A stretch of 64,000 nt of DNA. It comes from Geosiphon pyriformis uo1. Lineage: Eukaryota; Fungi; Glomeromycota. This document shows positions 24,649 through 61,152 of this stretch, one piece after another. The stretch lies in the NCBI GenBank assembly GCA_016748015.1, contig JAAOMT010000046.1:496001-560000 (forward strand). Reading direction: 5' to 3'. Each line of letters begins with the position of its first letter. The stretch's first letter is position 1. The position numbers were made by a program, and so were the translations under genes. A model generated the notes under the pieces. The model saw only the letters and a program-made list of their open reading frames with translations. It did no database searches and was not told where the DNA came from.

Positions 24649-24650
<2 letters not shown>

Positions 24651-24683: not shown

Positions 24684-24684
<1 letters not shown>

Positions 24685-25808: not shown

Positions 25809-25866
25809 GCACACACACGCACACACACACACACCCACCCACACACACACACAAACACACACACAC
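25809..25866. repeat. Imperfect (CA)n microsatellite
   Basis: Direct inspection. Confidence 0.9.
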
Positions 25867-26878
25867 AAACAGACAGACAACTCGAGTTTATGTGACTTCT
25901 CATTCTATTGTATTATTTTAGGTGGGGAAACATCATAATGATAATAATAGAAAGTGGGTAAATAAGGTTGCATTGCCGCGATAATCATTAAATAAATGAT
26001 TACTGATCAGATTCGTCACTAAGAGTCATTTTCGTAAAACGATGAAATGATTTTGAAAGGTGTGTATTATAAAATTTACATTTAACCAAGAAATTAGTTC
26101 AATTGAACCAGCACATTAACTTTATTCTTGTTTAAAAAGAAAATATTTCTATTGAAAAAATCACGTGAGTTAGATTTCATATCCAAGTTTCTAAATTATT
26201 TATTTATATTTTAAAAGTGTTAATTAAATTACTATTATTCGTTTTTGTTTTAAGTTTGAAATTATTAAAAGTTTTTTTTGAAAAAAATACTATTTATACA
26301 GCGAAAACGAAAACATATTATAAAAATATTTAAAAATTCAAAAATTTCAATAAAAATGATTTTAAAACATTATTATTATTTTATTTTTATTATTATTTTT
26401 ATTATTACTACTATTTATAATTGAAAATTTATTTTAAACATTATTATTAAAACAAAATTCACAAAATTCCATTTTTAAATTAACAATATTAAAAAAATAT
26501 AAACTAAGAATTAATATTTGGCAAAACACCAAAAATCAATTTTTGTAATTTTTGATTAAATCTTTTAAAATTTAAATTGAAAATAATTAATTTTAAAAAG
26601 TAATAATTAAATTAGTAAAACAAAGATTACTAAAACTTAATATTACCAAATTCATATAAATTTTATATATAATATTTAAAGTTAATTAAAAACTATATAT
26701 TTACATTAATATTAAAATAATATTCAATAAAAATTAATTATAAAAAAATATTTCTTGATTTTTGTTAATTTATTTCTATTATTTAATTTTTATTTTATTT
26801 AAATAAAAAAATTTATTAAAATTTATTAATTTTAAAATACTATTAATTTATATATTAAATTCTAAAATTTTTTAACCA

Positions 26879-26928: not shown

Positions 26929-28446
26929 AGTTAATAAGTAAAATCCAAAATTATTTAATTCAAAAAAATTATTTTTATTTTTATTAATAATTAATAATTA
27001 AAATTCAACTATTATTTACTATAATATAATAAAAATATATATTTTAAAATAAATATTATTCAAGCCAATTAAAACTATATTATATATCAAAAAAAAATTT
27101 ATTTATTTTTAAAACCAAATCAAATTAAATAAACTTTAAAAATATTTAATTTTATATAATTAAACTAAAAACAACAATTACAAAATTATATATATATATA
27201 TTAAACATTAAAATTTTAACATTGATAAAAAAAATTTTTTACTTAGTTTTTAATATTATATATTAATATTTAATTATTATTTTTGTATTTAATTATTATT
27301 TTATAATAAAATTCAATTAATTTAAAATAAATAACTTTTACAATTTTAAAAATCATCAATAATTTTTTAAATCAAGTTTTAATATAAAGTTTTTATATAA
27401 AATTATATAAAATAAATTATTTTTATTTGTATTATATAAAAACTAAACATAAAAATAATCAAATAAATAATTATAAACAATTAATATTTTAATGTTAAAA
27501 GTTTTATATATAAAAATACATAATATTATTTAAATAAAAAATAACCAAAAAAATTTTATTATTATTAATTAACCAATTAAATATTAAAATTATAAATAAT
27601 ATAATATTAAAAATATCAAAAAAGTTTCTAAAAATATTAAAATTACCAAGAATTTTAAGCATTTTAAAAATATTAAAATAATTAAAAATAATATTTACCA
27701 ATAAAAAAAAATTTAATAATTAAATAACTAAAAAACAAATCCCATTTTTATTTTTAAGTTAATATAATTTTAAATAAAATCATTATTTAAATTTATAAAT
27801 TCAAAATATTATTATTATTATTATTATTAAATTTATTAATAATTATTTTATATTAACAAATATTAAAATTATAATATCAATATCAATATTAATATTATTA
27901 TTATTATTTATTAATTTATAAATAAAATTTAAATGCTATTTAATATTATATATCAAATTAAATAGTCTAAATTAAATATAACCAGCTATTTAGACCAATA
28001 AAAACAATATTACATATTTATATTAATTAAAATAATATAATTAATATTAAAAAAAATATAGTTTTAGTAATATTAAACAATTTTACTATATTATTTTTTT
28101 TTTATTATGGTACAAATCATTTATAGTCATCAAACAATTTATATAATTTTAAATTGTATCTAGTCTTCCAATTTTAATAATATTAAAAAACTAAATCATA
28201 AATATGTTAGATTAAGTTCTTCTCTTTCACATTTATAGTTTAATTTTTTGAATTATATTATAATTTATAAAGTTATTAAAGTTTAAAATTAGCCACTTTT
28301 ATTATTAATCTTTAATTTTCGAATGCTGATCAATTAGATTTTAGCCAATCAACAATCACTAAAGTCACATTACCACGTAATAAATTATTGAAGTATTATC
28401 ATTTTCAGAAAGGCTTTCAATTAATATTAATCAAATCTTTAAATAG

Positions 28447-29130: not shown

Positions 29131-29368
29131 TTTTTAACGAGTTTGTTTTGATGCAAAAAATGTATGAAATGTATTAGTTCAAGTAAATAAAATCCAGATT
29201 TTTTTGTAAAAGCCTAATAAACTTCTTATTTATAAATAATATATTAAAAACACATGTATATTAACCAATAAAATTTAATTATATGAATAAAAACACATGA
29301 AGATTGTCATTTAAAATTTCGGACTGATTTACATTTTTGATGATTATAAATGGTTTGCACCATACAAA

Positions 29369-32300
29369 TTTTATGAATGAAACCCAACTGCTATCTAGTA
29401 CATAGAACCAAACTAAGTAAAACCAACTAAATGCAGTTCATGCACAGACTACATGTGGCCAGCCACTTGGACCAGACAAGGCAACATTATGCACTTATGC
29501 TGACAAAAGCACCACCATCCAAACCAGAGAAAAATTGACACAATTTGTATCTACCAAACCTAATAGCAAAGGATTCCATAATACCAAGTATACAAACAAC
29601 ACCAGCCGACAACCTAGAACCCATACTGCCAAACAAGCCAGAAACCAGACTATTATCCCCAACCAAGCTGGCTTTTTCCATATTTACCCTATGTTTGGCT
29701 CTAATAGACCATATCTTATTGTGATGTAACTTCACCAAAAACCTAACATATTCAACAAGGACTAGAACAGCTTCCTTTTTCCCCTCAAAAACTAAAACAG
29801 CTTCAGCATACTAATCTCCTATTACAAAACTCTTGCAAATTACTGTATAAAAACTCACATCCAAAAAACACAATGAAAGTAAAAGCAGAATAGCAAATGT
29901 AAATGGACTTGAAAGACCAGACATTGACATCTATTTTTCAGTAACTTCAACCAAAATGTTTCCACAGAGACCAGAGTCATCAGAACAGGTAAAAACATGA
30001 TTAAATAACTCCATCTTGCCACACATAAAGCACAACACCCCAAGATAACTCTTCTTATACAACTTTTTTCTAATTGTAACCAGCAGCTATTTGTATACAG
30101 CCTTTATTAAATATGTGCACAGATTGGCTGATTTTCTACTGGTAAACCCAAACAGCATATATGAATCAGGGTGCCAAATTGCTGCAGTAGTCCTCCAATC
30201 TATTTCTCTAATCATAACATTTGAAACAATATCAAAACCCAGACCAGTCTCCCAATGGGCACAGCATATTAACTGGTGTAAATCTCGAACAAAATAACAA
30301 GTATTGTCAGATACAGCAGATTTCTCAGCAATCATAAATCTTTTTCGAATTCCAACCGGCAAAGAAAAAGATAAGGAAGTTGCCTCATTAACTAATACAT
30401 CAATCTTAACATTGCCCACTACACCTGAATGCCCCTTAACCTTCACCTACTTAATTGAAATATTTTTATTCCTAAGAAAATTGTCTATATGCAATCTTTT
30501 GATCCAACATTGGTTACAGAAGTTAAGCATAGTAAGAGAAATCTCAGAAGTGCATGTATCAATCACAGATTAACTATCTGAGTATAAAACCACTAAACAT
30601 GAAGATGGAACACACTCTAAAGTCAATACTACAGTCTGCAATTCAGTTAAAATAGAGGACAAAAGCCCATTCACTCTAATCTCAATACTCGCATCTGCAG
30701 CCGAAAAGTATGCAGCCATTTTACCTGCCACCTTAGCAAAACCAGCATATTGTAAGGATCTATCTGTATAAACCTCAATACAATCAGACCACATCTCTAG
30801 TAAACTATCACAAACATCAGAAAATCTATCAGAATTTAAGACACTCAGCATATTCTTTCTCTTAGTAAAAGTAGTTCCAACTCCCAAAGAAACAGATTTG
30901 GTCATAAAATCAAATGTTAATGAAAACCAATGAGGCACTGAGCCTCTTAGATCCAACCACTTCCAACAATGAAATGTTTTCCAGTCTATCACCCTTCTAT
31001 TTTTATCAAGAAGTCTGTCACCAAATACAATACCAAATCGTTTTAATGACAAAACAGATTTAAAATACAAGGACTGATCTAAAATGTCAGATATTAGAAA
31101 GTTACCAAACTCACAAAAGACACAAGACAGATTGTTTGTTAATGACAACTCATTATTCAGAAAAATTTTCTCCACTCCAGCCAGAAAATTGTTTACAGAA
31201 CTAACATGCAACCTGACTGAAAATTGTAAAGGATCCAAAGGAGCCCAGTCCAGAACTTGTAAATCCAAGAATCTATAATTAAATAATCATCTCAGAATGC
31301 CACAGTTATTGAAGAATAAGATCAATAATGCCAGCTTCCCTTTAGACTGTACTTGCTCAAAGAGCTTTAAACTATACAAAAAAGGATGGTGCAAGATCTC
31401 ACTGAGAAAGTCATACAGCAAACCAGCTTTGGTCTTAAGACCTTTCCTAATCATAATGTCTCACTTACAACACATAGCTAAAGAAACAAAACTGAATTGT
31501 GTATGATAACCAACTATGGACTACAAAACTGCTGACACCAAATAACAAAATTGTTTGTCTGTGATAGTCTTTCTTAACATTACATTAGAAAAAAACTTGA
31601 TGTCTATATAAGCTTGAGCCAAACTGAATTTAGAGAGACCCTCAGTTGACAGAAATATGCCTAAATATTGGTGTGGCTCTCCCTTTTTAGCAATTGAAAT
31701 TGGCAATCCATTGATCAACAGTGAGGCATTCTTAATTCCTTAATTGATTGAAATAACTACTGTTTTATCAATATTAATTGAGATGTCATTGATCATAAAA
31801 AATTCACATGCAATGTTCAAAATATACTGTATAGAAGCATGATTACTACTGATCCAAATTGTATCATCAACAAATAAACCAGCAGCTAAAAAAGAAGTTT
31901 TTCCTCTAATTGTCTTAATCCTGTCAGACTTAGCCACAAACTTAGAATCAATCCTGTATTCACATAAGTATTCATGTCTTTTTACCTCACACAGAAATAA
32001 GTCATAAAAGACCCTCCAAAGTAGCAAAGAGAAAACCTCCCCCTGATTCAACTTATTATGTACTCTGTAGCCTTCTGAGAGCCCAAAATCTGTTATCACT
32101 CTGTTGACCCAGTTCTCATGAATGTTACCAAAAAATTGGATGAAGTGTTTACACATTTTTATATGATATAAGCTTGCTCACAAATGATGCCAGCCTACTA
32201 AATTATAGGCTTTGTGCATATCTTGTAGTACTAACCAAAGCTCTCTGTTTTTCTCTAGAATATTTTCAACAACCAAACCAATAACAAAAATAGGAGACTG

Positions 32301-35300
32301 GGTGGAAGTACTCTTCAACACTAAAAAATTGTTACCACAAAGAACATTAAACTTGCTATAAGCCAATGATATTTGATCAGATAAAATCTTAGAAAATATT
32401 TTACATGCAATATTAACTAATGTGATAGGTCTAGTATTTATTAGAACACCATTTCATTCATAAGGTTTTGGAATCATAGAAACCCACACTTTTTTTTAGG
32501 GATTAAGAACTGCACCCTGACTTAAACACAAATTCAACAGTCTTAAAAGACAGACCAAAACCTCTTTATCACAATGCTTCCAAAGTTCATTAAATATCCC
32601 TAACAACTCAGCAGCTTTATTATTTGGCAGGTTATCAACAACCAAAGACAATTCTTCCATACCAATTACATCTATTACATCAGAAAAAGCATTATTATCT
32701 ACATAATTTAGAGGCATATATTGTCGAGACCAGAGGTTAGGCATTTTTGGAAGAATTAATCACTTTCTTGTCCACCCTTCTATAATTTTATCGACCCTGA
32801 GCAATACCTCTTTAGACTCAACAACCAGCTTATTATCCACTACTAAGTGATCCAAAACTATCTTGTGAAATAGATGTTTCAAGATGCTTTTTATTATTTT
32901 CTCTTTGTTAAAACAAAAATTATCCATATGGTAGTCAATCGTCTTTCTTATAGTAGTATTCTTAGCAATTCTAGACTTGCAATATTTGGACTTTCAATAC
33001 TTCTTTCTTACTACTAACAAATGCTTAACCAGCTTCACTAAGCTCATACCAGTTAAAACTATGCTATTAACCTTGGAAGCCTCAACACTATTAATAGCCA
33101 ACCAGACCTTAATAAGATGGTTGAAATTCAATAAATCACCAGAATTCCAACATTTCAAAATCTTTGCAATAAGCTGTTCCAATTTAAAGAATCTTAAAGA
33201 TTGTTTATTCCTTGAACAGTCACATTCACCATATTACATCTTAGAGAAAACTGTATTGGCAGCTTGTACTATGGCCTCTTCTAGCATTTTTCACATTGTA
33301 TTTAAGTTACTGTTGTCTTCTGCCTCTTCAAACATATCCAACCTAGCCAACAATTCAGCAAACATGTGGTCTTTAAAGCCCAACTATTAAACATCATTTA
33401 CATCCTTTAAATTGAATTTCTACTGGTTTTTGTTGGCTTGCCTGCAAATGCTAATAAGATGGGCATTCAGTAGTCCACTCAGACCAATTGAAACTGAAAC
33501 TGACTTATAATCTGTATCAAAAAACTCAGACACATCATTGACCTTATGTGATGTAATAGTAGACACCAAATTTCCACTCACTAAAATAAAATCAATTACC
33601 CTCTCAACACTCTTAGAATAGCTTCAAGTAATAGCTTTGGCCAGCAAGTGTCCATCAAAAGTGTTAACTAGATCCAAACCCAAACAAAACTTGAAACTTG
33701 CACTTTTTTGAGATCCATTCTCATTAAAGTTACCACCCAAAATCACAAAAAAGCTGGAATTAACCACCTTGAAAATCATAAAATTGATAACAGCAGCTTG
33801 ACCAAAATGTGTGCCAACAGACACACCAGTATATAGACCCAAAATCATAACTGAAAGCTTGTTTTTGAACAAAAAACACACAGAAATCAACTGACCAGGA
33901 ATCTCATCTACTTTCAAAACATGTTAAGCCAAAGAAGTATTCATGATAATGGCAATGCCAGCACCTCAAAAACTAACATCCAAACCAGTAGTAAAGACCT
34001 AGACACCATCAAACTTACTCATAATCCAAGACTTAATATCAGATCTCAATTTTGTCTTAGTAACAATAGAAATCATATTATCCAAATTCTTATGTTAATG
34101 AACAATGTTATCTTGTTTAGCCAAATTCATCATACTCCTAGTATTATATGTAGTCACCCTCCAAACAAGCTTACTCATTGATGCAAATAATGTGTCAAGG
34201 AGTCTGAATTTACACACAACAGGTTTAATTTCCCCAAAATTAAGTTAATAGAAACTTCAAGAGCTATTATTTTAGATTTTAATCTGCCAACTTTAGAAGT
34301 CAGAACTTTTAAATTACTTAAACCCAAATCAACTGTTTTTTCTTTTATCTTAAGAGATGAAGGAGGAAGAGATGGCTGTAGAATATCCAAAACCATATTA
34401 GCATCTGACATTGACAACACAAGAATAGAGACATTTGAATGTCCAACTTTGGAAACAGGCACCAAGGGCACCAGCTCCACACCATTCAATCTGTATAAAA
34501 CATCTGATACTTGATTAGCTAACAATTTCAAAGAGTGTTCTAATGAAGTCTGACAATTGTTAATTGAGAAACTATCATGATTAGCCAGAGTATCCCCTTT
34601 ATTATGGACAATACCAAGAGAAAAAAAACCAGTCCCAAAACCAGAACTGAAATGAAAGCCACCAGAAAAAGAAGCGATTGAAACTACTTACGTCCAAAAC
34701 TTGCCACCAAAAGCAGCAGAACAGAAAATAGGAACATTTTTCTTCACATACAGCTTTGCTAGCTGAAGGCAATGTATATCTAAAGTGACTTTTTTAATAA
34801 ACCTTGAAGATTTAGCATTAGGTGCAATAGTTGTATCACACTCCATAGCAAAATAACCAAAGCATTCACAATTCCTACAGTAAACCAAATCCAATCTAGT
34901 CCAAGAAAGTTTAATACCACCAAAAATTGGCTCAGTTCAATATGCAAATTCAAGACATGCTTTAGATTCAAAATCAACCACAGCATATCAAATTTGGTTG
35001 CCAGTATCAAGTGAGTGATTAATGATGTAAGTTTTGCTGCCAATCTTGTCCAAAAGAGTGCCCAGATCATGAGCAATTGTATTCACAGACAAAGTAAACA
35101 ACAAAGCCCTAAACCAATCCCTTGATGTCCAGATATTGCAATCTCTTTCAGCCATAGTCACATGTACCGAATTTTTACCAATTAGAAAGAACCATCTAAC
35201 AGCCAAAAGCTCAGCCTGATCTAATTCAGCAAATTTCACTACAGCCTTTTGCCATAATCCAATTAGTTAAACTTTGATCAACTTAATTTTGCCAAACTCA

Positions 35301-36182
35301 GCTAGAGCAGTGACAATTATTTTCTTCAGTGTGTTTATGAGAATTTTTTTGATGACCACAGCCCAATCTGAATGAATTCCTTGTCTCTTAAGATTGTTGT
35401 TTACATTGATCTCTTTTTTTCTGGCCAATGATATGGCTATTTCCATGCTTTTTTCTGAAATAAAGATAGATCAGATGATCTCTTCAAATTTTGAAGGGGT
35501 AGTGGTCCCCCCAAAACCATTAACTAATGAAAATAATTTTCTGATGAATTAAGTTTTGGCTGTCGCTGATTTTCCATCCACAGCTAATAGATTAATGTTC
35601 AAAGCAAAAGATTTTTTTACTGACACCTCAACTTGAATTTTTATGATCTTAGGATCAATTCACTTTTTATCAAGAGAGAATTAGGGGAGGAGAGAAAAAG
35701 CCCACTTCTTTATCTATTTCAAAGTTTATAACTCTAACAGAAGGACCACTAATTAAACCAATATTGCTCTTCTTAGCTTTGGGAGTAGAAGCTGCTGAAC
35801 CAAGAAGAAAACCACTATTTGAGCCCACCACAAAGCCACCAGCTTCATTGTCACTGTACTTACTGTCCATATTCAAATACATACCCTCACTGACACCAGG
35901 TTTGACCAACAAAATTTTCTTTTCATCTCCAGAGTGTTTTATATTGCCAACAGAAACCTTCTTCTTTTGAGAGAAAGTACTATCAACAGAGCCATAAAGG
36001 GCACCTTTTGGGCCTTTTTTTATAGACATAATGCTATTTAAAGCAGCCTTTAGGCTTACTACAAAGGAGTTATTAGCTTGAAAAATGTTGAAGGTAATAT
36101 AACAAGTGAGATAAAAAACAAAAACTTCTTTTTCAAAATTTGCTTTTTGGGGAATTTGGACGAAGGAAAGAAAGAAGTTTTA
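29369..36182 (-). mobile_element. LINE copy B: near full-length decayed element, no nested insertion
   Basis: Same 5' terminus as copy A. ORF1 has CRNCECFGYFAMEC; APE GGNFNE; RT QGEVFSLLLW and LFVDDTIW; RNase H VYTD..YSDS..KVKGHSGVVGN. The 3' UTR is homologous to A and C but the AATAAAA tail is missing. Confidence 0.93.
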
Positions 36183-36937
36183 TTATATTATTTAAAAATA
36201 ATAACAATTTATTAATAATTAAAAGTATTAACTTATTATATAAAACCAAATTTTTTTTATTTATAATTATTCTAAAATTTAATTAATTATATTTTATTAT
36301 AATAAACAATTTCCAAATTATGAATAAAATTAATAATTTTATTAATAATAACTTTAATAATTTTATTAATAATAACTTTAATATTATTAAAAATAAATAG
36401 AATTTTACAATACTAATCTGTAAAAACAATTTTTTTGTACAAAACAATATATATTATATTATTAAATACACAGAAAAATAATATTTATAATATATATAAA
36501 AATATAATAAACACTTTTGACAATAATATTTATTAAATAATAAATAAATTTAATATTTTTTTATAAGTATTAAAATCTATTAAATCTTACTACAATAAAG
36601 ATATAAAACATTAAAATATTTTTTACTATATAAATATTTTTAAATTATTAAAAAAAAATAATAATATAAAGTTTTAATAAAATAAAAATACAAATTAATT
36701 ATAATATTATTTATAAATTCAAAAATTATATATAAATTAAAATATCAAATCAAAAAATTTTAAATTCAATTAATGTTTCTAATTATATTTTTATTAATAA
36801 TATTAAAACTAAATTCAATTTCTTAATAAGTATAACAAATAATTTTAAAACCATTATAAATAAAGTATTAGGTATTTTTTAAAAACAGCTGTTTTATTTG
36901 TTTTAATATATTTTTTATAAATATTAACAATAAATAA

Positions 36938-39900: not shown

Positions 39901-42291
39901 TAAGTTAAGTATTTGTAAAAATCCCATTTCAGTCATAAGGTTTAGAAATTATTGAAATCTATGCTCTTTTTCATAAAGCAAAAACACCACTGACAGCCAA
40001 ACATGTATTTAATAGCTTTAAAAGCCACCTCAAAACTTTATTACCATTATGTTTTCACATTTTATTAAAAATGCCAGACAATTTAATAGCTTTGCCATTA
40101 AGTAGACTATCAACAACCAAGAGCAAATTACTTATACTAATAAGATATATTACAACAAAAAAAACATCATCTTTTACATGATTTAATGGTGTTATCAGAG
40201 ATTTTTGGTCTCTTTTCTTGAATGTTGTTAATGTTGATTTGCTGTAAATTTACATTCTCAAAAAGTAGTTGGACTTTTAGTAACTGAATTTATCTTCAAA
40301 TTATCTTTTATAATTTGAACTACTGAGCTTATAAGTGGAATGGCCAATTCCATGTCAGTTGTTTTGTGTAGTTACATTGTAGTAAATATCAATTCTTTTC
40401 CAGGAATTGCTTGTCTAAAAGCTTACTAAAATGTGTAGTTACTTTGCTGTAAAAGTTAACTCTTCTACAGGAATTTTGTTTGTAGGCTACCCTAATAATT
40501 GTAATAAAAAAATAAAAGAAAAATAAAAGAAATGTAAAAGAAATGGGATTTTATCAAGAGAAACGTTTTTTATTCAGGCCTGGAGTCACTAACAGATTAC
40601 TGAAATTAATAGCTAATCAATTTTAAAACATTAGTTTGTGTTGAGAGAATTTCAAATGTAATAATCAAAAAATTTAATTTTCGAATATTTAATTTTTATT
40701 TGAATGTGTAAAAAGTGATTTGTTCCAATTAAAATATCTAAAGTAAGATACTATGAAAAGATGTATTTTTTTGAAGAGAGAAGCTCTTTTTTTATATAAC
40801 TTGTTGTAGTACTAGTCTTTGAACTTGCACTTTTCTCTTTGCTACAATTTGGGTAAACTAAAGATACATTTTAGCAAACTACAAGTTATTTCACTAAACT
40901 ATTGATTATTTCGGCCAATTTTTATTAATTTTGGCAAATTTTGACTATGTTAAATAGTTCAGAGTATTGTGTAATTTGATCATCTTAATTTTTATTGTAC
41001 AAATCGAATTATTGATTAAGTAATAATATTTGATAATTTGATTAATTAATAAGTAATAATTAAAATAATAATAATATATGCTAATTAATAATAAGAATTA
41101 TGAGGGTAATTTCATGCTAATTAATAGTTAAAATTCTACTGGTAACAATGGCACATATTGTCTAGTCCAGAGATTAGACAACACCAAAGACACTTTCCAC
41201 ACTCTTATTCAGCTTTCTATAATTCTATTAACACTATGCTTCACCTTATTTGGCTCCAAAACCAACTTTTTATTTACTACTAAATGATTCAAAACCACTT
41301 TGTAAAAAGACTTGTCTAAAATATTCTTTATTATGCTCTCTTTATTCAAACAAAAGCTTTCTATGTACTTGTTAATTGCTTTCTTAATAGACATCTTTTT
41401 AGCCAATTTTGACTCATAAAGCTTAAACTTTCTGTACTTCTTTTAAACCATTAACAAATGCTTAAGAATAATCATTGACTTTTTATTAAGTTAAATCATA
41501 TTCATAATCTTACAAGCCTTATCAGAGTCTAGAGTTGACTATTTTTCAATGAAATACTTAAAACCAAGCATATTACCTAAGCCCAATCTCTTAACAATCT
41601 TGGCAACTAACAATTTCAACCCAAAAAATTTTGAATATTGTTTGTTTTTTAAATACTGATATATACTAAACCAATATTTAGAAAATGTCTTATCAGCTGA
41701 TTCCATTATTACTTTTTTCAACAACTTCCATATTATATTTAAATTATTACAAGCTTCTGTTACCAAGAACTCATTCTCTACTGCTGACAACTTAGCTATA
41801 GAACACTCTTTAAATTTCACTCATTTAGTAACATTTGCATCCTTGATCTTAAACTTTTAATGGTCTTTGTTAGCCTGCTTGCACAAGCTATTTAAATGAA
41901 CATTTAGAAGTCCATCCAAGCTAATAGATACCATAACAGCTTTATGATTAGTGTTGAAAAATCTAGAAACAGATCCAATCTTATAACCAATAACAGCTAA
42001 AGACAAATTCTCACTAAAAAAAATGTAATTAATAGTTTTCTTAACCTTTTTTGAATTGTTTCACATAAAAGTTTTGGTTAAATAATGGCCAGAAAACAAA
42101 TTGACCAAACCCAAATCCAAACAAAACTTGAAATTTATACTCTTTCCAAACTCATTTTTATTAAAGTCATTACCTAATATCACAAAATTGCTGAAGTTGA
42201 CAGCCTTTACAATAAGAGAGTTTATCTCCAAAGTCTGTTCAAATTTAGCTTTAGACAAAGCACCAATATACAAGTTCAAAACTGTAACCGA
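36938..42291 (-). mobile_element. LINE copy C: 3' two-thirds (APE C-terminal part to poly-A tail); cut at 42291 by Gypsy A and containing a solo LTR
   Basis: Poly-T at 36938-36945 plus the conserved 3' UTR; RNase H MYIDG..LNSQAA..KDHSGVVGN; RT MFVDNTIW; APE ILGNDFNK. Confidence 0.9.
40190..41147 (-). mobile_element. Solo LTR of Gypsy family B (958 bp)
   Basis: TGTTAT...GTAACA termini; TSD ATGG (40186-40189 / 41148-41151); colinear with the LTRs at 51302-52271 and 60183-61152. Confidence 0.95.
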
Positions 42292-45028: not shown

Positions 45029-46043
45029 TGTTACCAGTAGAATTTTAGCTATTAATTAGCATAAAATTACCCTTATAATTCCTATAATTAATCAGTATAT
45101 TAATATCATTTCAAATTATCATTTATTATTTAATCAATTATCACATATCACGATTCAATTAAAATAATCTAATTAGTATAACAGAAAGTAGGATGATCAA
45201 ATTACACAATATCCTGAACTTTGTAACATTCAAAAATTTGCCAAAATTTACAGAAATTCGCCGAAATTTATAAGAAATTCGCCGAAATTTACAGAAATTC
45301 GCCGAAATTATGAATAGTTCACCCAAATTAATCAATAGTTCAGCGAAATAACTTGTAGTTTATCAAAATGTATCTTTAGTTCACCGAAATTTGAGCAAAA
45401 AGAAAAAGTGCAAGTTCATAGACTAGTACTACAACAAGTTGTATAAAAGAAAAGCTTTTCTCTTCTGGAAAATGTATCTTACTTTAGATTTATTACTTAG
45501 AACCATTCCTACACACACAAAAAGAAATAAATATTAAATAATTCAAAAAAACCAAATTCTTTAATTATTGCACTTGAAAAATCTTCAAAACCCAACTAAC
45601 ATTTCGAAATTGATTAGCTACCAATTTCAGTAAATTGTTAGTGACTTCAGGCCTGAATAGAAAACATTTCTCTTGACAAAATTCTATTTCTTTTACATTT
45701 CTTTTATTTTTTTCTTTTATTTTCTTATTACAATTATTAAGGTAGTCTACAGATGAGATTCCTATAGAAGAGTTGACTTTCACAGCAAAGTAACCACACA
45801 TTTTTAGTGAGCTTCCAAACGAGCAATTCCTGGAAAAGAGTTGATGTTTACTACAACATAACTACATAAAGTAACTGGTAAGGAATTGGCCATTCCACTT
45901 ATAAGCCCAGCAGTTCAAATTATAGGAGATAATCTGAAGATAAATTCAGTTATTGGAGGTTTAACTACTTCCTAAAAATGTAAATTCACAGCAAATCAAC
46001 ATTACCAACATTTAAGAAAAAAGACCAAAAACCTCTGGTAATA
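45029..46043 (+). mobile_element. Solo LTR of Gypsy family B (1015 bp, expanded U3 tandem repeat)
   Basis: TGTTACCAGTAG...CTGGTAATA (terminal CA mutated to TA); TSD CCAT (45025-45028 / 46044-46047); TATAAAA near 45442, AATAAA near 45527. Confidence 0.93.
45234..45352 (+). repeat. Tandem ~20-bp repeat (AAATTCGCCGAAATTTACAG) in U3 of the family-B LTR
   Basis: Three near-perfect units plus degenerate flanking units; fewer units in the other three B LTRs. Confidence 0.85.
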
Positions 46044-51301: not shown

Positions 51302-52271
51302 TGTTATCAGAAGTTTTTGGTCTCTTTTTTTGAATGTTGTTAATATTTGTCTGTTGCTACTTTCATGTTTTTTGAAAGCAATTGAACCTCTAATAACTGA
51401 ATTTATTTTTAAATTATCTCCTATAATTTAAACTGCTAAGCTTATAAATAAAATGGCCAATTCTGTGCCAGTTACTTTGTGTAGTTATGTTGTAGTAAAT
51501 GTTAACTCTTTCTCAGAAATTGCTTGTCTGGAAGCTTACTAAAAATATGTAGTTATTTTGCTGTGAAAGTCAACTCTTCTACAGGAATCTTATCTGTAGG
51601 CTACTCTAATAATTATGATAAAAAAAAAACAGAAAAATAAAAAAAATGTAAAAAAAATAGAATTTTGTTAAGAGAAACGTTTTCTATCTAGGCCTAAAGT
51701 TACTAACAGATTACTGAAATTGGTAATTAATCAATTTCAAAATGTTAGTTGTGTTGAAGGAATTTCAAGTACAATAATCAAAAGATTTGGTTTTTAAATA
51801 TTTAATTTTTATTTGAATGTGTAAAAAATAATTTGTTCTAATTAAGATATTTAAAGTAACATATTATGTTAAGATACTATGAGAAGATACATTTTCTTGA
51901 AAAAAAAGCTTTTCTTTTATACAACTTGTTATAGTACTAATCTTTGAACTTGCACTTTTCTTTTTGCTGCAATTTGGGTGAACTAAAGATACATTTCGGC
52001 AAATTACAAGTTATTTCACTGAACTATTGATTATTTCGGCCAATTTTCATTAATTTTGGCGAATTTTGACTATGTTAAATGGTTCAGAGTATTGTGTAAT
52101 TTGATCATCTTACTTTCTATAATACAAATTGGATTATTAATTGAGTAATAATATTTGATAATTTGATTAAATAATAAGTGATATTCGAAATAATAATAAT
52201 ATATGCTAATTAATAATAAGAATTATGGGAGTAATTTATGCTAATTAATAGCTAAAATTCTACTGGTAACA
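51302..52271 (-). repeat. 3' LTR of the complete Gypsy B
   Basis: Direct repeat of 60183-61152; preceded by a purine tract. Confidence 0.96.
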
Positions 52272-52274
52272 TAA

Positions 52275-52284
52275 TTTTTTCCTT
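52275..52284 (-). promoter_or_regulatory. Polypurine tract (AAGGAAAAAA)
   Basis: Purine run 3 nt upstream of the 3' LTR; probably eroded by G->A changes. Confidence 0.65.
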
Positions 52285-52289
52285 AAGAC

Positions 52290-52830
52290 TGAGTTCCATC
52301 AAAGTTCAAGCACTATCTGTGATATTAAAATAGTGGTCCAAAATAATTAAAGTGATTTGGTCTAAAAATTGTTAAAATTTCAGTTCTATAAGCTTTCCAA
52401 TGTATTGAATCTTTATTAGATAAAGTATTGGATTTTGTAAAATATTTTTACAAGTGTTGAATAACTCATAGAGTCTAAATGCTGCTCTAAGTTTGTAGTG
52501 AGTGTTTGTTAGTCTGGCTGCTGTCTTGAATTCATTGTGAATTTGTTTTTGTATAGCTTTTAGAGTAATGTTTATTGTTTCAAGTTCTAGTTTTTGTTTA
52601 TAAAGTGTTTTTCCAATATGAAAATATCTATATATAAGGGTATGTTTATTGTTCTGTTTGTTGAAGAATAGTAGAAGTTTTTGTTAAATTGTGGCATTTG
52701 GTGAAATGTCAATAGGGGCAGATAAAAAGTTTTCTTTTAGTGCTTGCTTCAAAAGTTTTGGTAATTGATTTCCAGAGTAACTTCTTGTTATTTTCTATAA
52801 GAGTGATAATTCTGGGAATTATTTTCTACT
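52290..52830 (-). pseudogene. Extra ORF (ORF3) between integrase and the 3' LTR of Gypsy B, unknown function
   Basis: Hand translation gives 103 stop-free codons at 52683-52375 (QKLLLFF..YRYFHIGKTLY..KLRAAFRLYELF..IQYIGKL). It extends both ways through CAA/CAG/CGA-revertible stops and is absent from the ORF track because it lacks a start codon. Confidence 0.6.
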
Positions 52831-53199
52831 AGTGCTGTGGTTTTTTTTTGAGTATAATTAATTTGATTTCCATTAATTATTATGAATAGATCAAGAAGTG
52901 TTTTCAAAGCTAACATTAATTTTTGGAATATTTGTTGAATATTTCGAAGAATAATCATGATAATTGACTAATTAATAAACAAAATTTTTAAAAAAAATAA
53001 AGAAAATTATTTTTGGATATGGGGTTTTTATTTGTTTTTAGGTTTGAATGTTTCTTGTAATTATTTACTATTTTTGTTTTATATTTTGTGTATTTTAAAG
53101 GAGTTATTATAAAAATGTTAAATTAAATGTTTAAGTTTAATTGTTGTTCTATTATAATTATTGGTTCTAAATTTCAGAGAATATCTTCAGGATTAATTA

Positions 53200-54506
53200 G
53201 AGGAGAATGTGTACCAATTTGTGGAATTAATGGTTCAGGATTGTTTCTGGAATGATAGTATTTTAATCAATCTCCATGTACAACTTTTGCTAGTACTTTG
53301 TCATCAAGTCTTAACTTGTATGATCTATTGCCTAGAATTTCATAAATATAAAATGGTCCATCCCATTTATGTTCAAATTTTCCACTCCATTGTTTTTTAA
53401 TCTTAGTTCTGTGTAAGAGAACTTTATTTCCCACTTTAAATTTGTTAGTAACTGGTGACAATTTGTTGTTATGTCTTTCTTTTTGTTGGGCTTAAGAGTG
53501 TTTAATATGAATGGCTGCTATGTGTTTTTTTTTTCAATATACTAAAAAGAGTGTAGGCTCTTTTTTGGAGTGTTTTTTGAAAGTTTTCTTCATTGGTTGG
53601 TTGTACTGAATATGTTTTTACTGTAAAATTAATTGGCAATGTTGCTGTCTTTTCATAAGTAAGATCAAATAGTATGTGTTTCATAGTATCTTGTTTTAGT
53701 GTTCTGTATGCTAATAACACTGATGGAATAAAAATATCCCATTCCTGCTCAAAATCTGTTGAGACTTTGGCTAAAGATTCACACAATGTTCTGTTGAAAC
53801 GTTTTACAAGTCTATTTGTTTGAGGATAATAAAGTGATGATAGAGGTCTTTTGATATTGAATCATTCACAAATTTCTTGTATCAAGTTGTTCACAAAATG
53901 TGTTCTTTGATCAGATAAGAGTTCAATTGGGCATCTATGTCTACAAATAATGTCTTCATAAATGAAATTTGCTACTGATTTTGCATCTGTTCTTTGAATG
54001 GCTCTAGTTTCAGGCCATTTGGTAAGATAATCTACTGCAACTGCAATATAACAATTTTTTTGGGTTGTGATAGGTAATGGTCTGACTAAATCAATTCCAA
54101 CTTTGTCAAAAGGTTGTTCAACTTTGATTGGATTTAAAGATTCTGTGGGGTGAGTTCCTTCTCTTTTTTGACAACTATTACAAGATTTTATATATTGTTG
54201 AATGTCTTTTTACATATAGGACCAAAAATAATGTTTAAGAGTTCTTTGAATTGTTCTATCTCTTCCCAAGTATGCTGAAGATAGATTTGTGTGTATGTTG
54301 TATAGGATTGTTTCTTTTTCATTTTACTGTACTAACTTGAGTAGTTGGTTTGGGTTTTTGTGATTTTTGTAATAAATTTTGTTGTAATGTATAAAATATT
54401 GTTTGAATTGGTGTTGTAATCGATGTTTTTCACTTGGAGACCAATTTTCTGGCATGATAAGAGTCTCCAAATAGTTTTTAAAGTTGTTGTAATTTCTGAG
54501 ATTCAT
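53200..54506 (-). pseudogene. Gypsy B integrase (HHCC, DDE core, GPF/Y tail; no chromodomain seen)
   Basis: HTN..SCNSCQK, VGIDLV.PL, VDYLTKWPE, LLSDQ.THFVN, LV(E>K)RFNRTL, VLLAYRT, KFEHKWDGPFYI. Confidence 0.92.
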
Positions 54507-54599
54507 TGTTGTTTTGTTGTTTTGTTGGTAGTAATAAGTTGTAGTGAATTTGTTGATAGTGTTAATCTTGTCTTATTTTTGAAAGGCTATCAACATTAG

Positions 54600-55900
54600 T
54601 GTGTAGTTTTCTTGGTTTGTGGTGTACAATATATTTGTAGTCTGCTAGAAAATTATTCTATTGAGACTGTTTGGCACTTTGTTCAGTTTTTTTTTTATTG
54701 AGCCATTTAAGACCAATATTGTCAGTTATGATGTCAAATTCTTTTCTATTCTTTAGGTATTGTTGAAAGTGTTTAAGAGCCCAAATGACTATAGCAGCTT
54801 CTAATTCAGTTGAGCCATATTTGAATTCTGTAGATTTGAGTGTTTTATTGGCATAAGCAATAACTTGCTCCTGGCTATTTTCATTCAATTGTGATAGAAT
54901 GGCACCAAATGTTATGTGTGAAATATCAGTGGCTAGTTAAAACTGTTTGTTAAAGTCTGGGTAAACAAAAACTGAGGCTGTTGTCAATTTTGTTTTGAAA
55001 ATTTTAAAGACTTTCTGCTGTTCTTTAATCCATTGATATAGCATGTTTTTGTTGATAAAATAATTGAGTGGTTTGGCAATTTCTGATGAATTTTTAATAA
55101 TAAGAGGTTAATTCTACAAATCTTTGTAGTTCTGTGGTATTTTTGGAAGTTTAAAAGTTTTTGACAGCACTAATTGTTTTCAGATTTGGTTTGGCTCCAT
55201 CTTTGCTGACAATATGTCCAAAAAAGATTAAACTTGTTTTTCCAAAGTGACACTTCTTAATGTTCAATTTCAATCTTGCTTTCCATAATTGTTGAAAAAC
55301 TTCTTACAAGTGGATAAGATGAGCTTTAAAACTTGGTGAGTACACATTAGTATTATCAAGATAGACAACTACTAACTGTCATAAAAATACTTCATATACA
55401 ACATCCATAAATTGCTAAAATGTTGTTGGTGCATTATAGAGTCTAAAAAGCATAACATTGAACTCATAGTTTCTTTCTTGGGTGGTAAATGCTGTTTTGG
55501 ATCAATTTTTTGGGTCTATTTTGACTTGTCAGTATCCACTTTCCAAGTCTAAAGTTGAGAAGAACTTGGCTTTTCCTAGAGCATCTAAGATGTCATTAAT
55601 TTTTGGAAGAGAATAGGCATCTCCAATTGTCATGCTATTGAGTTGACAATAATCTACACAGAATCTGATTTTTCTATTTTTCTTTTTAACAAGAACTACT
55701 GATGAGACCCAAAGACTTCTTGATGATTGAATCAATCTGTTATTGAGCATTTTTTGGACCTCTTCTTTTATAAATTGGTGGCTAGCAGATGGAACTTGAT
55801 AAGCTTATTGTTGTTTTGGTAAAGCATCTTCTGTATGGATTTAATGTTGAATAATATCAGTTTTTTTCAGATCATTGTTGTTTTTTGCAAATATATCTGC
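54600..55900 (-). pseudogene. Gypsy B reverse transcriptase and RNase H
   Basis: WVSSVVLVKKKN.KIRFCVDY.QLN, FSTLDLESGY, VVYLD(D>N)TNVYS at 55363-55352, FFGHIVSKDG, VIAYANKTL..YGSTELEAAIVIWALKHF..IITD. Confidence 0.93.
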
Positions 55901-56369
55901 AAATTCAGCTATTAGCTGTTTCAATTGTCTTTGTTGTTGGGGTTCTAAGGGACTCATGTTGATTCAAGAGAGTTTTTTTTCCAAAAAGTGGTAGTTTTCA
56001 GTAATAAGGATAATATTTGGATTTGGAAGTAGAGTATGTCTTACAATTTCGATAAAATTAAAGACAATTTGGAAGTTTTTATCTTAAAAGATATTATTGT
56101 GTATGATTCCAATCTCTGATTTGTTCAATAAAACAATAAGAGTAATTATTGGGATTGTAAAATGTAACTTGAAATTTTTTTATTCCTTTGGAAATATAAA
56201 CATTTAGGATTGAGATTTTATGCTTTAAACAAATTTGTTTATTGGATTCAAAGATTTGTTGAATAGTGATGGGTTTTGAGCAAGTGTAAATTTCGTGATG
56301 TTTTCCAAAAGATGAAATCTGGTGAGATTTATTCTGTGCATTGAGAACTATATTTACTGGAGCTGTAAA

Positions 56370-56800
56370 TCATTCAGTTGAACCAAAATCTTGCATTTTT
56401 CTTTTACTTTTTCCTAATTGTTCTCTGTTGTTAACTGATTGTAAACTCAAAATGTTAATTAAGAGTAAGTAAATTGCTTGGGCAATTTTTTTAGCATGTT
56501 CAATTCTGAATAGTTTGTTTGTTTTATTTTGTAACATAATAGTAATATCTCCAGTATATCCTGCATCTATGACTCCTTCTCTAACATTGATTTCTTTGCT
56601 TGCCAATGATGATTGGAAAGCAATTTGGACCATTGCTCCTAGTGGTATTTTAAGAGCAATTCTGAGATTGATTTTGGTTAAAGATTTTGGTTGGAGAACC
56701 AAAGTGTCTTTGCCAGAATATTTTAGATTATATCCTGTATCAATTTCGTGGGCTTTTTTTGGTTTTATTCTTTTTCCATTGTTGTTAAAGTATTTGAATT
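56370..56800 (-). pseudogene. dUTPase domain within Gypsy B pol
   Basis: All five trimeric dUTPase motifs are recognisable: AHEIDTGYNL (I), QIAFQSSLASK (II), GVIDAGYTGDITIML (III), KIAQAIYL (IV), KRKMQDFGST (V). In frame with gag and PR. Confidence 0.92.
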
Positions 56801-57799
56801 GTATAGCAGATTGGTTTTTAGTAAGATAAATTGAAGTTGTTGTAATTTCTTCTTCTGGCTTAGGTTCTCCAAACTTAATTTTTTTTTGGTCATTTTTGTT
56901 GGGTAAGAGAATACTAAGCACATAGCATTTTGAACACTATTTATTATTACAAGGCATGATGTATTCTTCACACAATTGAATATTTATCTGCTCTAATCAT
57001 TGAATTTGAGCTTCTTGAGTCAGATAAGTGTGACTTGCAATTTGGTGATATGTTTTTACTTTATCTTTGTAGTTGAATCTAGCTAATTCTATTATATACT
57101 CAATGTATTCTGCTTCTTTTATTTGGTGGACATCTTTTTGTGTGGCTCCATTAATTAAAGTTATTGCTAGGTCAAAGATTATTTCAGCATCATAAGAGTA
57201 GTGGTAAAGTTTGTTGAGAGCACTGTTGTATGTTGTATTAAAAAGTGTTCCTCTTCTGACTTTTTCTGAGATTGATAGAGCATATTGACAGGTTTGATCA
57301 CATACTCCTCCTTTTATTGCAACATCAATCTAGTTGTATTCTTCTGGTGGCATATCTTCATATGTGAGACATGGAGTGTTGTCCTATTTTCCACTTCTTT
57401 TGGGATATTCAAATCGTTTTCTATGACATGCTTTACAAAAGTAGCAGATGCAAGTTTCATATTCTTCTTCTGGAGAAATACATGCTCCCATTGATGAAAG
57501 TTTTTTGTTACAATCTTTGCATTTAAGTGGGATGTAGGGTGGTTGTTTTCATGATTCTGGTGTAGAATATCTAACTACATTCTATTCTCTGGTCTTTTCA
57601 AAAATTTCTTGTTCTGTTTCCTTGGCCCAACTGGATGTTGATCCAAGAGCCATAAAAGTTTCAGTAATTGGTAGTTTTTTTTTATTTTTAAATTCAAATA
57701 CTGGAGCTTTTTTGGATTTTTTATTAAAAGTACCACAAGTAACAGATACTCTAGTGTATTGTCTTTGGTATAAAATCTTCATTTCTTGGGTTTTCCAAT

Positions 57800-58110
57800 T
57801 TAAATTTGCATTGGCCTTGAAAAGCCAATTATTTCTGACAAGAGCTTAATATTGTAGTGCATCCATGACTAAAACTTTAACTGGAATGGTAATTCCATCA
57901 ATTGTAAATGGAAAGTTGTCAATTTCTTCTACTGGTGTCTTTTTCATTCTATCTGCTGTAACAATAACAGTTTGGGCTGGTCTGTCAACCGTTTTTTGAA
58001 GCTGTTGCATCAATTGGTAGGTGATAATACTTCCAGCTGATCTACTGTCTAAAATTAACTGAATTGGTTTTCCTTCAACTTTAGCTTTAGTATACATTGT
58101 TGTAATTGCT
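57800..58110 (-). pseudogene. Gypsy B aspartic protease
   Basis: KPIQLILDS(G>R)SAGSIIT ... IPVKVLVMDA ... ALV(G>R)NNWL. Confidence 0.88.
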
Positions 58111-58449
58111 TTTTGTTCATTGACTGCTGTATTGCTAAGCAAGAATGGTAATTCATTGGCTTCAAATTCAAATGAAAATATATTTAAGAGGTTGGCATTT
58201 TGAGCAATTTGAGCTGATGAAATAGTATTGTTAGAAGAGTTTGATCTTAATGTTGCAACTTCACCTTCAGAAAGTGCAGTTTGTTGAAAATCCGATTCTT
58301 CAGGTATTGTAAGATAACTGGGTTGAATGTAATAGTAATTGAGTCTTTGCTGACCAGAATTTTGGAGAACTAATTGGTTGTTTAAATTGATTTTGTTGTT
58401 ATTGTTCTGAAATTGATTTTGAAGTGTGAATTGGTTATGTTGAATCACT

Positions 58450-60137
58450 CTTTAAGCTGGTACTTGATATTGTTGTGTAGGTGGTTGTTAATACTGTTGA
58501 ATTGGTAGAAATTGTTGGTATTGTTGTTGTAGAGTAGGTTGATAGTAATTGGTTTGTTATTGGGGTTTTAAGAAATAGTAGACTGGTAGTGGAGGCTAAT
58601 AATAAGATTGCTGTTTTGAAGAGTAGTATTAATTACTCCTGTTTTATTGGTTTTTTTGTAGCTTTCTGCAATCTCATTTCCAATGTTCTGAAATTCCATA
58701 ATAATGACAACTTTGGTTTTGACTGTTTGATAATGGTGAGTAGTTGGTTTGGTTTTGTTATTGTGGTGGCTAATATCTTTGTGGTTGTTGCTGTTGTTGC
58801 TGGTTAATGAAATAGTTCTCAATCTTCTTTGTAAGTTGGTCAATTTTTTTTTCAGCTGCTGAGCTGGTTTCTCCAATAGCAAGATTCACAAGTTTGGTAT
58901 GGTTTGTTTTTTCTATTGCCATTTCATAGTTTTTTGCATGTCTAATGGCTGTTGCTAAGTCTTCTGGGGCATGTAAGCGAACTTTTTTGATTAACTTGTC
59001 TTTCAATCCTGCTATAAACTGATCCAAAATCTGGGCATTGGAATAGTATTCATTGGTTTCTAATTATCAAATTCATCAAAGAAGTTTGTTAAATCTCCCA
59101 AGATAGGTTATAATAGTTTCAAATGTTTCTTGTTTGATATTTCAAAAGCAATTGTGGAAAGTGATAGAGATGTTGTTGTTAGTAAATTGTTATAAAAAAG
59201 CATTTTTAAATGCTTGCCAGTTTTCAAATGGTTCTTCTAAATTTTCAAACCATTCTTTTGCAGTTTCTTAAAAAAAGTATGAGATTGCTTTGAGCATTCT
59301 TGCTGTATTCTAACCATTTGCATCTCCTGCTTTTTGAACTTTGTCAAGCCATTCTTGAAAGCTAGTATTATTATTTTTACCAGTAAATTCTGAAATCTTT
59401 GCAATATAAGCAGTTGACATTTCTTTTTCGTTTTCTGTAATTTTTTCTGATTCTGATTCAGTTTTTTTACTTTCTAAGTTTTCTGAATGATTATTTTTGT
59501 TTTCCTGTAAGTAATCAAGAAAATTGGTACTGGTTGATATTGGTTCTTGCTGTTGAATAGGATTTCTAAGTGACTGAAAATCTTCTGGTCTGAAGAAACA
59601 GTTAAGTGGTGAATTTGGTGTTTGTAGTTAAGCAAGTAAAATTGGAAATGATGTAATAGAAAGTGGTAATTTAACACTGGTTCTTTGTTCAGATGTTTGT
59701 AAGTGTTTTGTAGTTGTCTTTAGTGTTTTTGAAGTATTTGGGGTGGTATTTGAGTGTTGTTTCAGTTTTTGTTTGCCTTTGTTGTTTGTTTCTGTCTCTG
59801 ATTCAAAGTCAATAGAGTATTTAGACTGTACTGGATATGTTTCTTCACAATACTTGATAATGTTAAAATTAAGTTCTTAGAAGTAGGTGGCAAGTGTTTT
59901 ACTGTTAAGGTTTTCAGTTCCCAATTGTAAATAGTGCACTAAATTATTGTAGAGGTTGCTTTTAATTTTTGAAATGTTGTAATTTCCAAGAAGATAATTG
60001 TTGATACAGTTTTCAATATACTGATAAAGTGTTTTTTTAACAATTTCAATTCCATTTAGAATGTTGAATCTTTGCTTGCAATAGATGTAAATTGACTGAT
60101 AATACTCTAAAGTTGTTGTGTCTGGTGTGGTCACCAC
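58450..60137 (-). pseudogene. Gypsy B gag
   Basis: AYIAKISEFTG, AFKNAF, DQFIAGLKDKLIKKV..PEDLATAIRHAKNYE, a decayed CCHC knuckle near 58670-58710 and a Q/N-rich tail; same frame as PR. Confidence 0.85.
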
Positions 60138-60169
60138 TTTGAAGTTGTTATTGCTGTGTTATTTCCATA

Positions 60170-60180
60170 GGAGAGCACCA
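60170..60180 (-). promoter_or_regulatory. Primer binding site TGGTGCTCTCC
   Basis: Lies 2 nt inside the 5' LTR and begins TGG (complement of tRNA CCA); family A has the related TAGTGCTTTCT. The cognate tRNA was not determined. Confidence 0.8.
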
Positions 60181-60182
60181 AA

Positions 60183-61152
60183 TGTTACTGGAGGTTTTTG
60201 GTCTTTTTTCTTAAATGTTGTTGATGTTAATTTGTTGTGAATTTACGTTTTTAGGAAGTAGTTGGACCTCCAATAACTGAATTTATCTTCAAATTATCTC
60301 CTATAATTTGAACTGCTGGGCTTATAAGTAGAATAGCCAATTCTGTGCCAGTTACTTTGTGTAGTTATATTGTAGTAAACGTCAATTTTTTTTCAAGAAT
60401 TACTTATCTGGAAGCTTACTAAAAATGTGTAATTACTTTGCTATAAAAGTCAACTTTTCTACAGGAATCTTATCTGTAGACTACTCTAATAATTATGATA
60501 AAAAAAGAATGGAAAAATAAAAAAAATGTAAAAAAAATAGAATTCTGTCAAGAGAAACGTTTTCTATCCAGGCCTGAAGTTACTAACAAATTACTGAAAT
60601 TAGTAGCTAATTAATTTCAAAATGTTAGTTGTGTTGAGGAAATTTCAAGTGCAATAATCAAAGAATTTGGTTTTCAAATATTTAATTTTTATTTGAATGT
60701 GTAAAAGGTAATTTGTTCTAATTAAGATAACTAAAGTAATATACTATGTTAAAATACTATGAGAAGATATATTTTCTTGAAGAGAGAAGCTTTTCTTTTA
60801 TACAACTTGTTGTAGTACTAGTCTTTGAACTTGCACTTTTCTCTTTGCTGTAATTTGGGTGAACTAAAGATACATTTTGGCAAACTACAAGTTATTTCAC
60901 TGAATTATTGATTATTTCGGCCAATTTTTATTAATTTTGGCGAATTTTGACTATGTTAAATGGTTCAGAGTATTGTGTAATTTGATCATCTTACTTTCTA
61001 TAATACAAATTGGATTATTGATTGAGTAATGATATTTGATAATTTGATTAAATAATAAGTGATATTCGAAATAATAATAATATATGCTAATTAATAATAA
61101 AATTATGAGGGTAATTTCATGCTAATTAATAGCTAAAATTCTACTGGTAACA
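60183..61152 (-). repeat. 5' LTR of the complete Gypsy B
   Basis: TGTTAC..GTAACA termini; direct repeat of 51302-52271; followed by the PBS. Confidence 0.96.

Follow-up and report, generated by a model that had tools for sequence, protein, structure and literature searches.

The window analysed here, a stretch of 64,000 nucleotides, holds a host bZIP gene, retrotransposons in decay and long AT-rich deserts (Table 1). The main bZIP exon matches G9A89_016070 of Geosiphon pyriformis at 100% identity; this fungus belongs to the Glomeromycotina and is related to the root-symbiotic mycorrhizal fungi. The match bears out the early-diverging fungal host supposed in the preliminary description of this DNA. 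The full-length Ty3/Gypsy element carries a gag-like region, protease, dUTPase, reverse transcriptase (RT), RNase H and integrase; protease, dUTPase and rve have Pfam matches and the other parts were recognised from the translation. Of its 24 alignable stops, 16 lie at positions that are mostly occupied by Q, R or W in distant homologues. At least three Gypsy families with a dUTPase between protease and RT, including the one at 56373-56936, are present in Geosiphon, whose genome contains 41.2% LTR elements (PMC11952901). A gag fragment of another retrotransposon family lies on the plus strand at 44224-44574, and an unclassified stretch with 26% GC (28150-29300) adjoins a desert. The non-repeat stretch at 500-3000 is CpG-rich, lacks a long ORF and is probably a flank or part of another host gene.

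Table 1. Features of the window discussed in the text, by position from its first base.
Feature	Positions	Strand	Remarks
Further non-repeat controls	19400-21000 and 500-3000		
LINE_A, degenerate non-LTR retrotransposon with RT and RNase H	5170..12660 (approximate limits)	+	GC 37%, CpG O/E 0.12
AT desert	12700..19350		GC 11%, TpC O/E 0.65, GpC O/E 2.2; mostly without assignable source element
Probable relic, LINE 3' end	14197..14639	-	GC 9%; in AT desert 12700-19350; aligns with 36940-37405
Host bZIP gene, main exon (G9A89_016070)	21528..22514	-	Control; CpG O/E 1.3, GC3 0.24
Gene-flanking non-repeat DNA	22600..26200		Control; GC 28.5%, CpG O/E 1.04, TpC O/E 1.03
End-stage relic, LINE 3' end	27915..28088	-	GC 10%; aligns with 29370-29565
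LINE_B, degenerate non-LTR retrotransposon	29300..35950 (approximate limits)	-	GC about 34%
End-stage relic, 3' part of LINE_A family	36172..36936	-	GC 8% vs 37%
Solo LTR S40	40190..41147	-	TSD ATGG; inside a LINE; orientation as the element's LTRs; outgroup
Solo LTR S45	45029..46043	+	TSD CCAT; opposite orientation; partly divergent subfamily; outgroup
Full-length dead Ty3/Gypsy element	51302..61152	-	Many stops; 4-bp target duplication ACAT
3' LTR (L51)	51302..52271	-	TG..CA, 970 bp
Segment of the preliminary description, within the 3' LTR	51381..51540		21/160 differences from 60261-60420
Inferred U3 (promoter) side of LTR	51946..52271	-	
dUTPase region	56373..56936	-	Basis of the codon-resolved spectrum
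5' LTR (L60)	60183..61152	-	TG..CA, 970 bp; of the four LTRs, nearest the family majority

Our starting point was the claim that 51381-51540 aligns without gaps to 60261-60420 and that all 21 differences are transitions, which realignment confirmed. Both segments lie in the twin LTRs of a single ACAT-flanked element. Because twin LTRs are identical at insertion, these differences arose in the chromosome, and errors of reverse transcriptase are ruled out as their source. Over the whole LTR pair there are 83 transitions and 5 transversions at 968 sites, and of the transversions all but one lie together in a patch at the end of the LTR. This patch (51302-51384), which also contains one indel, looks as if it had been derived from another subfamily by template switch or conversion. 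At the 21 sites where C/G had been taken as ancestral, both solo LTRs have C/G at 14, one has it at 6 and neither at 1; across all 83 transitions the corresponding numbers are 38, 27 and 18. At these last 18 sites both outgroups have T/A.

Each of the four LTRs carries both C>T and G>A changes. The protein-level changes reported earlier are likewise all present, namely YLDN (55363-), FVDN (46761- and 39350-), LDSRS (58052-) and the terminal CA>TA of solo LTR S45, one terminus of which is altered to give TG..TA ends; two other LINE copies (10191+ and 31874-) have FVDD instead of FVDN. APOBEC3-type editing of cDNA, which is one-stranded (G>A on the coding strand) and precedes insertion, produces C>T changes with a TpC preference, as seen here. 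However, the Geosiphon changes are found on both strands, were acquired after insertion as the twin LTRs diverged, and include cytosines preceded by a purine, so the suggestion that retrotransposon cDNA had been edited by an APOBEC-type enzyme did not hold.

The observation is confirmed as real and strong, and it extends well beyond 160 bases. When 58,063 contigs of run X1 were aligned on 52280-61153 and variant places were counted at a share of at least 10%, we obtained 1773 transition and 258 transversion places. Among 17 variants listed for 60255-60375, 13 are C>T or G>A and one is a transversion, and at the other three many or most copies have G/C where the window copy has A/T; the underlying depth-weighted shares come from assembled contigs and give direction only, not rates. 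No RNA source was listed for the element. Runs X2 and X3 covered the element in scattered places only and were left out of the evidence. The contigs of run X2 differ from the window copy over 52280-61153 by A>G or T>C at 119 places and by G>A or C>T at 37, i.e. they represent a GC-richer relative or a less eroded copy.

The dUTPase region matched 195 proteins, the best 120 of which, all from G. pyriformis, were analysed. Their 2150 residue changes from the majority require a GC>AT transition in 67% of cases, the others being ambiguous (10%), transversions (10%), AT>GC (8%) or multi-step (4%). The asymmetry is strong: E>K occurs in 387 of 1592 cases and K>E in 1 of 1360. After block edges had been trimmed and codons resolved with the window DNA (157 usable columns out of 188), C>T was found at 1713 of 12635 site-copies, a rate of 0.136, compared with 0.0077 for T>C and 0.001-0.004 for each transversion with these best 120 of 195 copies pooled. 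Of the 112 sites, 103 show C>T above 2%. The copies are open reading frames, in which changes that create stops are invisible. A second and a third Gypsy family (76 and 15 representatives; nine of ten representatives checked were G. pyriformis) likewise show frequent E>K (0.18-0.20) and D>N (0.21-0.22) replacements, compared with 0.07-0.11 for A>T.

A few frequent changes other than C>T mark subfamilies of the dUTPase family. With one such marker, the best 120 copies could be split into two subfamilies of 41 and 72, within which the rates are 0.11 and 0.14 for C>T, 0.008 and 0.002 for T>C, and 0.0001-0.002 for transversions. Both subfamilies are hit at 84 of 102 C>T sites but at only 6 of 676 other changes, which shows that the C>T changes are recurrent rather than inherited. 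For non-coding DNA, the protein data may underestimate T>C, given the 18 of 83 twin-LTR sites with T/A in both outgroups and a C>T rate among four-LTR singletons only 5-fold above that of T>C.

The 120 NCBI proteins P0343-P0462, annotated as hypothetical in G. pyriformis, all derive from this one retrotransposon family and represent mutated fragments of it. Their identity to the nearest other copy has a median of 89% and a maximum of 94%, so there is no young copy among them. A search for relatives of the family beyond G. pyriformis returned mainly Geosiphon, and Ambispora was not named among the 10 dUTPase-family relatives checked. An intact relative of 1064 amino acids with 49% identity (P0481) lies on a metagenome contig.

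We next consider sequence context. The earlier context counts were reproduced; sorted by 5' base they amount to 9 of 17 sites after T, 5 of 11 after C, 6 of 19 after A and 1 of 12 after G, the three CpG and three ApC sites of the original count together forming the six ApC sites. A sample of 160 bases is too small on its own to establish a context bias. In larger samples, the proposed TpC excess on both strands of LTR and LINE elements was borne out after context normalisation, in the four LTRs and in the best 120 of 195 dUTPase copies. In these 120 copies, with third-position contexts taken from one mutated copy, the rates by 5' base are 0.199 for TpC (47 sites), 0.108 for CpC, 0.105 for ApC and 0.064 for GpC (p=1e-9), while the 3' base has no influence (CpA 0.134, CpC 0.139, CpT 0.123; p=0.48). 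LTR DNA shows the same order (TpC 0.217, CpC 0.197, ApC 0.128, GpC 0.088), with TpC changed at 70 of 322 sites in the four LTRs and ApC plus GpC at 54 of 469 (p=1.4e-4). A context-flat reading of the four-LTR singletons was overturned by this 5'-T effect. Among trinucleotides in the best 120 copies, TCG is fastest at 0.32 (3 sites), followed by TCA (0.24), TCC (0.17) and TCT (0.17); purine-flanked cytosines are also mutated (ACA 0.15, GCA 0.05).

CpG is the fastest dinucleotide context in these best 120 of 195 copies, at 0.228 on 5 sites only, and is nearly exhausted in the transposable elements (TEs; O/E 0.06-0.12). CpG contributes just 116 of the 1713 events (7%) in these copies and 11 of 152 in the LTRs, which rules out plain CpG decay and agrees with the earlier statement that CpG decay alone is insufficient. 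UV damage at pyrimidine dimers, imaginable for a photosymbiotic fungus living at the soil surface, would account for the lead of TpC and, in LTR DNA, of CpC. We nevertheless regard it as highly improbable, since tandem CC>TT changes are not in excess (51 double changes observed vs 59 expected; p=0.31 for CC pairs in LTRs), purine-flanked cytosines mutate freely, and TpC is undepleted in gene flanks.

Mutation of a copy by Neurospora-type RIP is strand-coordinated and burst-like. Over 560 bp in 102 copies we found no strand-coordinated runs (p=0.91), although many successive rounds would blur them. The C>T load per copy ranges from 4 to 32 in the best 120 of 195 copies (mean 14.8, variance 24.7), a single broad distribution, and sites on the template strand are hit more often than those on the coding strand (0.168 vs 0.099 in the same copies), a difference explained only in part by context. 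With RIP of Neurospora crassa and other Pezizomycotina, the Geosiphon pattern shares nearly pure C:G>T:A change on both strands of repeats and AT-rich relics beside GC-richer gene DNA that, judged by composition, was spared. Unlike in Neurospora, there is no preference for CpA, no coordinated runs were seen, the composite RIP index of the Ty3/Gypsy element is negative (-0.44), and erosion proceeds to 8% GC, far beyond the roughly 80% identity that Neurospora RIP requires (quoted in PMC6572847). Membership in classical RIP, raised as an option in the preliminary description, is thus not supported, and the process escapes detection by the standard RIP index in the element tested.

A true RIP that is homology-triggered, premeiotic and RID/DIM-2-dependent could still be envisaged if it had an unusual target and had acted through many cryptic sexual cycles. 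The arbuscular mycorrhizal (AM) clade is stated to possess RID (PMC8298701), and RIP targets differ among fungi, TpCpG being the one described in Pucciniomycotina (PMC3318451). Together with the indifference to CpA and the uncoordinated loads, the classification of seven Glomeromycetes as no_rip in a kingdom-wide survey that does not include Geosiphon (PMC12543289, supplement 12) makes this explanation quite unlikely.

The end point of the process can be seen in the deserts. In the window, 21 of 128 bins of 500 bases have less than 15% GC. In an alignment that scored transitions as near-matches, the highest reversed control was exceeded by 5 of 40 desert segments but by 0 of 25 gene-flank segments. 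The best case, 36172-36936, is collinear with LINE_A at 12470-11695 and has T at 111 of 163 C positions and A at 90 of 112 G positions, the reverse T>C and A>G changes numbering 10 and 11. Its alignment score is 265 against a shuffled maximum of 53; those of 27915-28088 and 14197-14639 are 88 and 92, each against 56, and only the first part of the latter aligns well. Over the three aligned relics about 12% of source C/G survive (about 88% lost), fewest after T, the sources being relatives rather than true ancestors and the old alignments also holding many transversions. Among the cytosines that survive in deserts, those after T are fewer than expected (O/E 0.45-0.67) and those after G more numerous. 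For most desert DNA, transition-tolerant alignment within the window assigned no source element, and when the deserts were scanned with purine/pyrimidine patterns derived from Gypsy proteins, no score exceeded the reversed control. The measured rates imply a GC equilibrium of 2-7%, close to the deserts (8-11%) and far below the gene flanks (26-29%).

TpC preference is typical of several APOBEC-type deaminases, and a DNA cytosine deaminase favouring a 5' T could act directly on the double-stranded DNA of repeats or heterochromatin, with CpG lost separately through ordinary CpG methylation. The lead of TpC over other non-CpG contexts in proteins, LTR DNA and desert survivors, and the indifference to the 3' base, would fit such an enzyme. 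However, the rates at GpC and ApC (0.06-0.11) are still some 50-100 times those of transversions, and strand-coordinated clusters are absent. Uracil excision often adds C>G and C>A changes, but these reach only about 0.001, and the hits on both strands of LTR and LINE elements after insertion exclude the editing of single-stranded cDNA. We therefore consider direct deamination by such an enzyme unlikely.

Gene-flanking DNA, which extends over kilobases and is rich in microsatellites, has 26-29% GC, with O/E ratios of 1.04-1.09 for CpG and 0.88-1.06 for TpC, and at several borders a step of 100-200 bases takes GC from about 30% down to about 10%. Such contrasts favour a process specific to one compartment, on grounds of composition rather than of a single-copy mutation spectrum, the composition being that of about 8 kb comprising the flanks of one gene and an unannotated stretch. 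The opposite explanation is a spectrum common to the whole genome, caused for instance by weak repair of deaminated cytosine, with genes and flanks shielded by selection or GC-biased conversion; indeed, a flank GC of 28% could be held by selection or biased gene conversion. The low GC3 of the host bZIP exon (0.24), the high transition/transversion (ts/tv) ratios of related elements in other fungi, and the loss of Rev1 from all Glomeromycotina (10.1101/2025.09.02.673565), which could lower transversions everywhere, are compatible with this explanation. Loss of Pol zeta was ruled out as the reason for scarce transversions, Geosiphon being reported to keep it (10.1101/2025.09.02.673565). CpG and TpC near expectation in flanks whose GC lies far above the implied equilibrium, the sharp GC borders, and a rate difference inside a single LTR all speak against a genome-wide spectrum, which we judge to be improbable.

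This difference concerns the inferred U3 side of the LTR (51946..52271), where 11 of 85 C/G sites carry transitions compared with 56 of 167 elsewhere in the LTR (p=5e-4). After adjustment for context, the 11 observed transitions stand against 28.5 expected, about 2.5-fold fewer. The U3 side also retains most of the few CpG shared among the LTRs and may be a protected promoter or enhancer. In solo LTR S45, a CpG-containing motif of this side forms a tandem repeat.

Comparison with other fungi indicates which parts of the signature are distinctive. In an integrase cluster of Rhizophagus irregularis (16 sequences), 53 of 174 changes are GC>AT, 79 AT>GC and 21 of transversion type, so that GC>AT is not in excess, unlike in Geosiphon; in nine further clusters, mostly of metagenome fungi, GC>AT accounts for 31-49%. 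All ten clusters are young, having been selected at 90% identity, which makes the comparison with Geosiphon uneven. A first scan of metagenomes with the integrase of the window found no relatives. From related Gypsy loci in soil metagenomes, 80 of 394 were kept for DNA comparison. The ts/tv ratios of 27 locus pairs with at least 85% identity range from 2 to 41, so a high transition ratio by itself is not special to Geosiphon. The median CpG O/E of these loci is 0.75, and one cluster shows C>T at 0.028 and T>C at 0.004. In three polarised clusters CpG and CpC lead, TpC being lowest or average in two of the three. In one small cluster (L005, L015 and L023), unpolarised changes are more frequent at TpC than at the other two purine-independent comparisons, GpC and ApC (e.g. 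TpC 9/102, GpC 0/31, ApC 3/76), with very small numbers.

A reasonable hypothesis, and the one to which we give somewhat better than even credence, is that a DIM-2/DNMT1-type enzyme methylates the cytosines of repeats whatever their context and that the repeats subsequently decay by deamination, likely at a steady pace in vegetative nuclei. We infer both this mechanism and its repeat-specificity from the patterns described above. A candidate methyltransferase would methylate repeat cytosines irrespective of context, and deamination of the methylated base would convert C:G to T:A on both strands, at a rate that, as observed, is two to three times as high after T as it is after G or A. Methylation as the mark of the target is suggested by CpG, which has been lost from repeats alone and which, where any remains, mutates faster than the other contexts. 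The 5'-T preference could stem from the methyltransferase itself, or else from deamination or repair; we found no description of such a preference for DIM-2. Relics that have lost about 88% of their C/G suggest that decay would continue once copies are no longer similar. The process would also kill elements and in this way serve as a genome defence. Given uncoordinated loads and erosion far past recognisable homology, a steady chromatin-guided process fits better than the premeiotic bursts of RIP.

The premise that RID and methyltransferases acting outside CG occur in Dikarya only is weakened, since the AM-fungal clade is said to have DNMT1, DNMT2, DNMT5, DIM-2 and RID (PMC8298701). By LC-MS, 32.5-49.5% of all cytosines are methylated in R. 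irregularis (PMC8298701); in our view, CpG alone could hardly accommodate such a proportion. In R. irregularis and Gigaspora margarita, which belong to the same subphylum, TEs are methylated, genes largely are not, and repeat CpG has decayed, the last of these as in Geosiphon; the accounts consulted for these species map methylation at CpG only and report no RIP signature (10.1101/2021.03.30.436303, PMC8298701, PMC13443276). If methylation-linked decay is correct, methylation outside CG is predicted for Geosiphon, with a context profile that can be measured. Also conceivable is a dedicated mutator defence, independent of RIP and directed at transposons, which would operate without sex or persisting homology and would end in deserts of 8% GC. 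It could be either a methyltransferase acting as a deaminase or a TpC-preferring deaminase of double-stranded DNA, but we hold this reading to be doubtful. If it were true, it would represent a new repeat-mutating system in a lineage scored as RIP-absent.

Methylation-linked decay has its closest described counterpart in Zymoseptoria tritici, where Dim2 raises mitotic C>T mutation more than tenfold in methylated regions, at CpA (PMC8016269). Both fungi show C>T dominance in repeats with missense and nonsense changes in TE genes, and in Z. tritici more than 95% of the changes are C>T, are confined to methylated repeats and accrue without meiosis (PMC8016269). The contexts differ: in Z. tritici more than 98% of changes are at CpA and CpG is spared, whereas in Geosiphon the 3' base is indifferent, a 5' T is preferred and CpG is erased. 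The enzyme and the mitotic timing have been shown for Z. tritici (PMC8016269); for Geosiphon we only infer them. The TpCpG hypermutation of Pucciniomycotina resembles the Geosiphon pattern in that a 5' T raises the rate and TCG is fastest, but partial matches to TpCpG are not elevated there (PMC3318451), whereas in Geosiphon TCA, TCC and TCT reach 0.17-0.24 and all contexts are hit. The process is apparently an undescribed variant of repeat-associated C>T hypermutation, with an outcome like that of RIP but without the RIP context. Index-based hints of RIP exist, with caveats, for Entomophthorales (PMC11105155). Full-text literature searches listed no account of the signature for Geosiphon or other Glomeromycotina, although the Geosiphon genome paper may hold an earlier mention; the passages of PMC11952901 on the LTR elements of Geosiphon do not mention RIP.

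Mutational defence against repeats has been thought of largely as an ascomycete trait. Our interpretation, if true, would place repeat-directed mutation outside Dikarya by the evidence of alignments rather than dinucleotide indices, which are blind to the process in partly eroded elements. In practice, TE ages based on divergence are inflated in the Geosiphon genome, many of the hypothetical proteins annotated under G9A89 represent TE fragments altered by mutation, and dead TEs make up at least part of the ultra-AT intergenic DNA. Finally, when both are read in the same LTR orientation, the solo LTRs at 40190-41147 and 45029-46043 share the target duplication ATGG, by chance or through a target preference.
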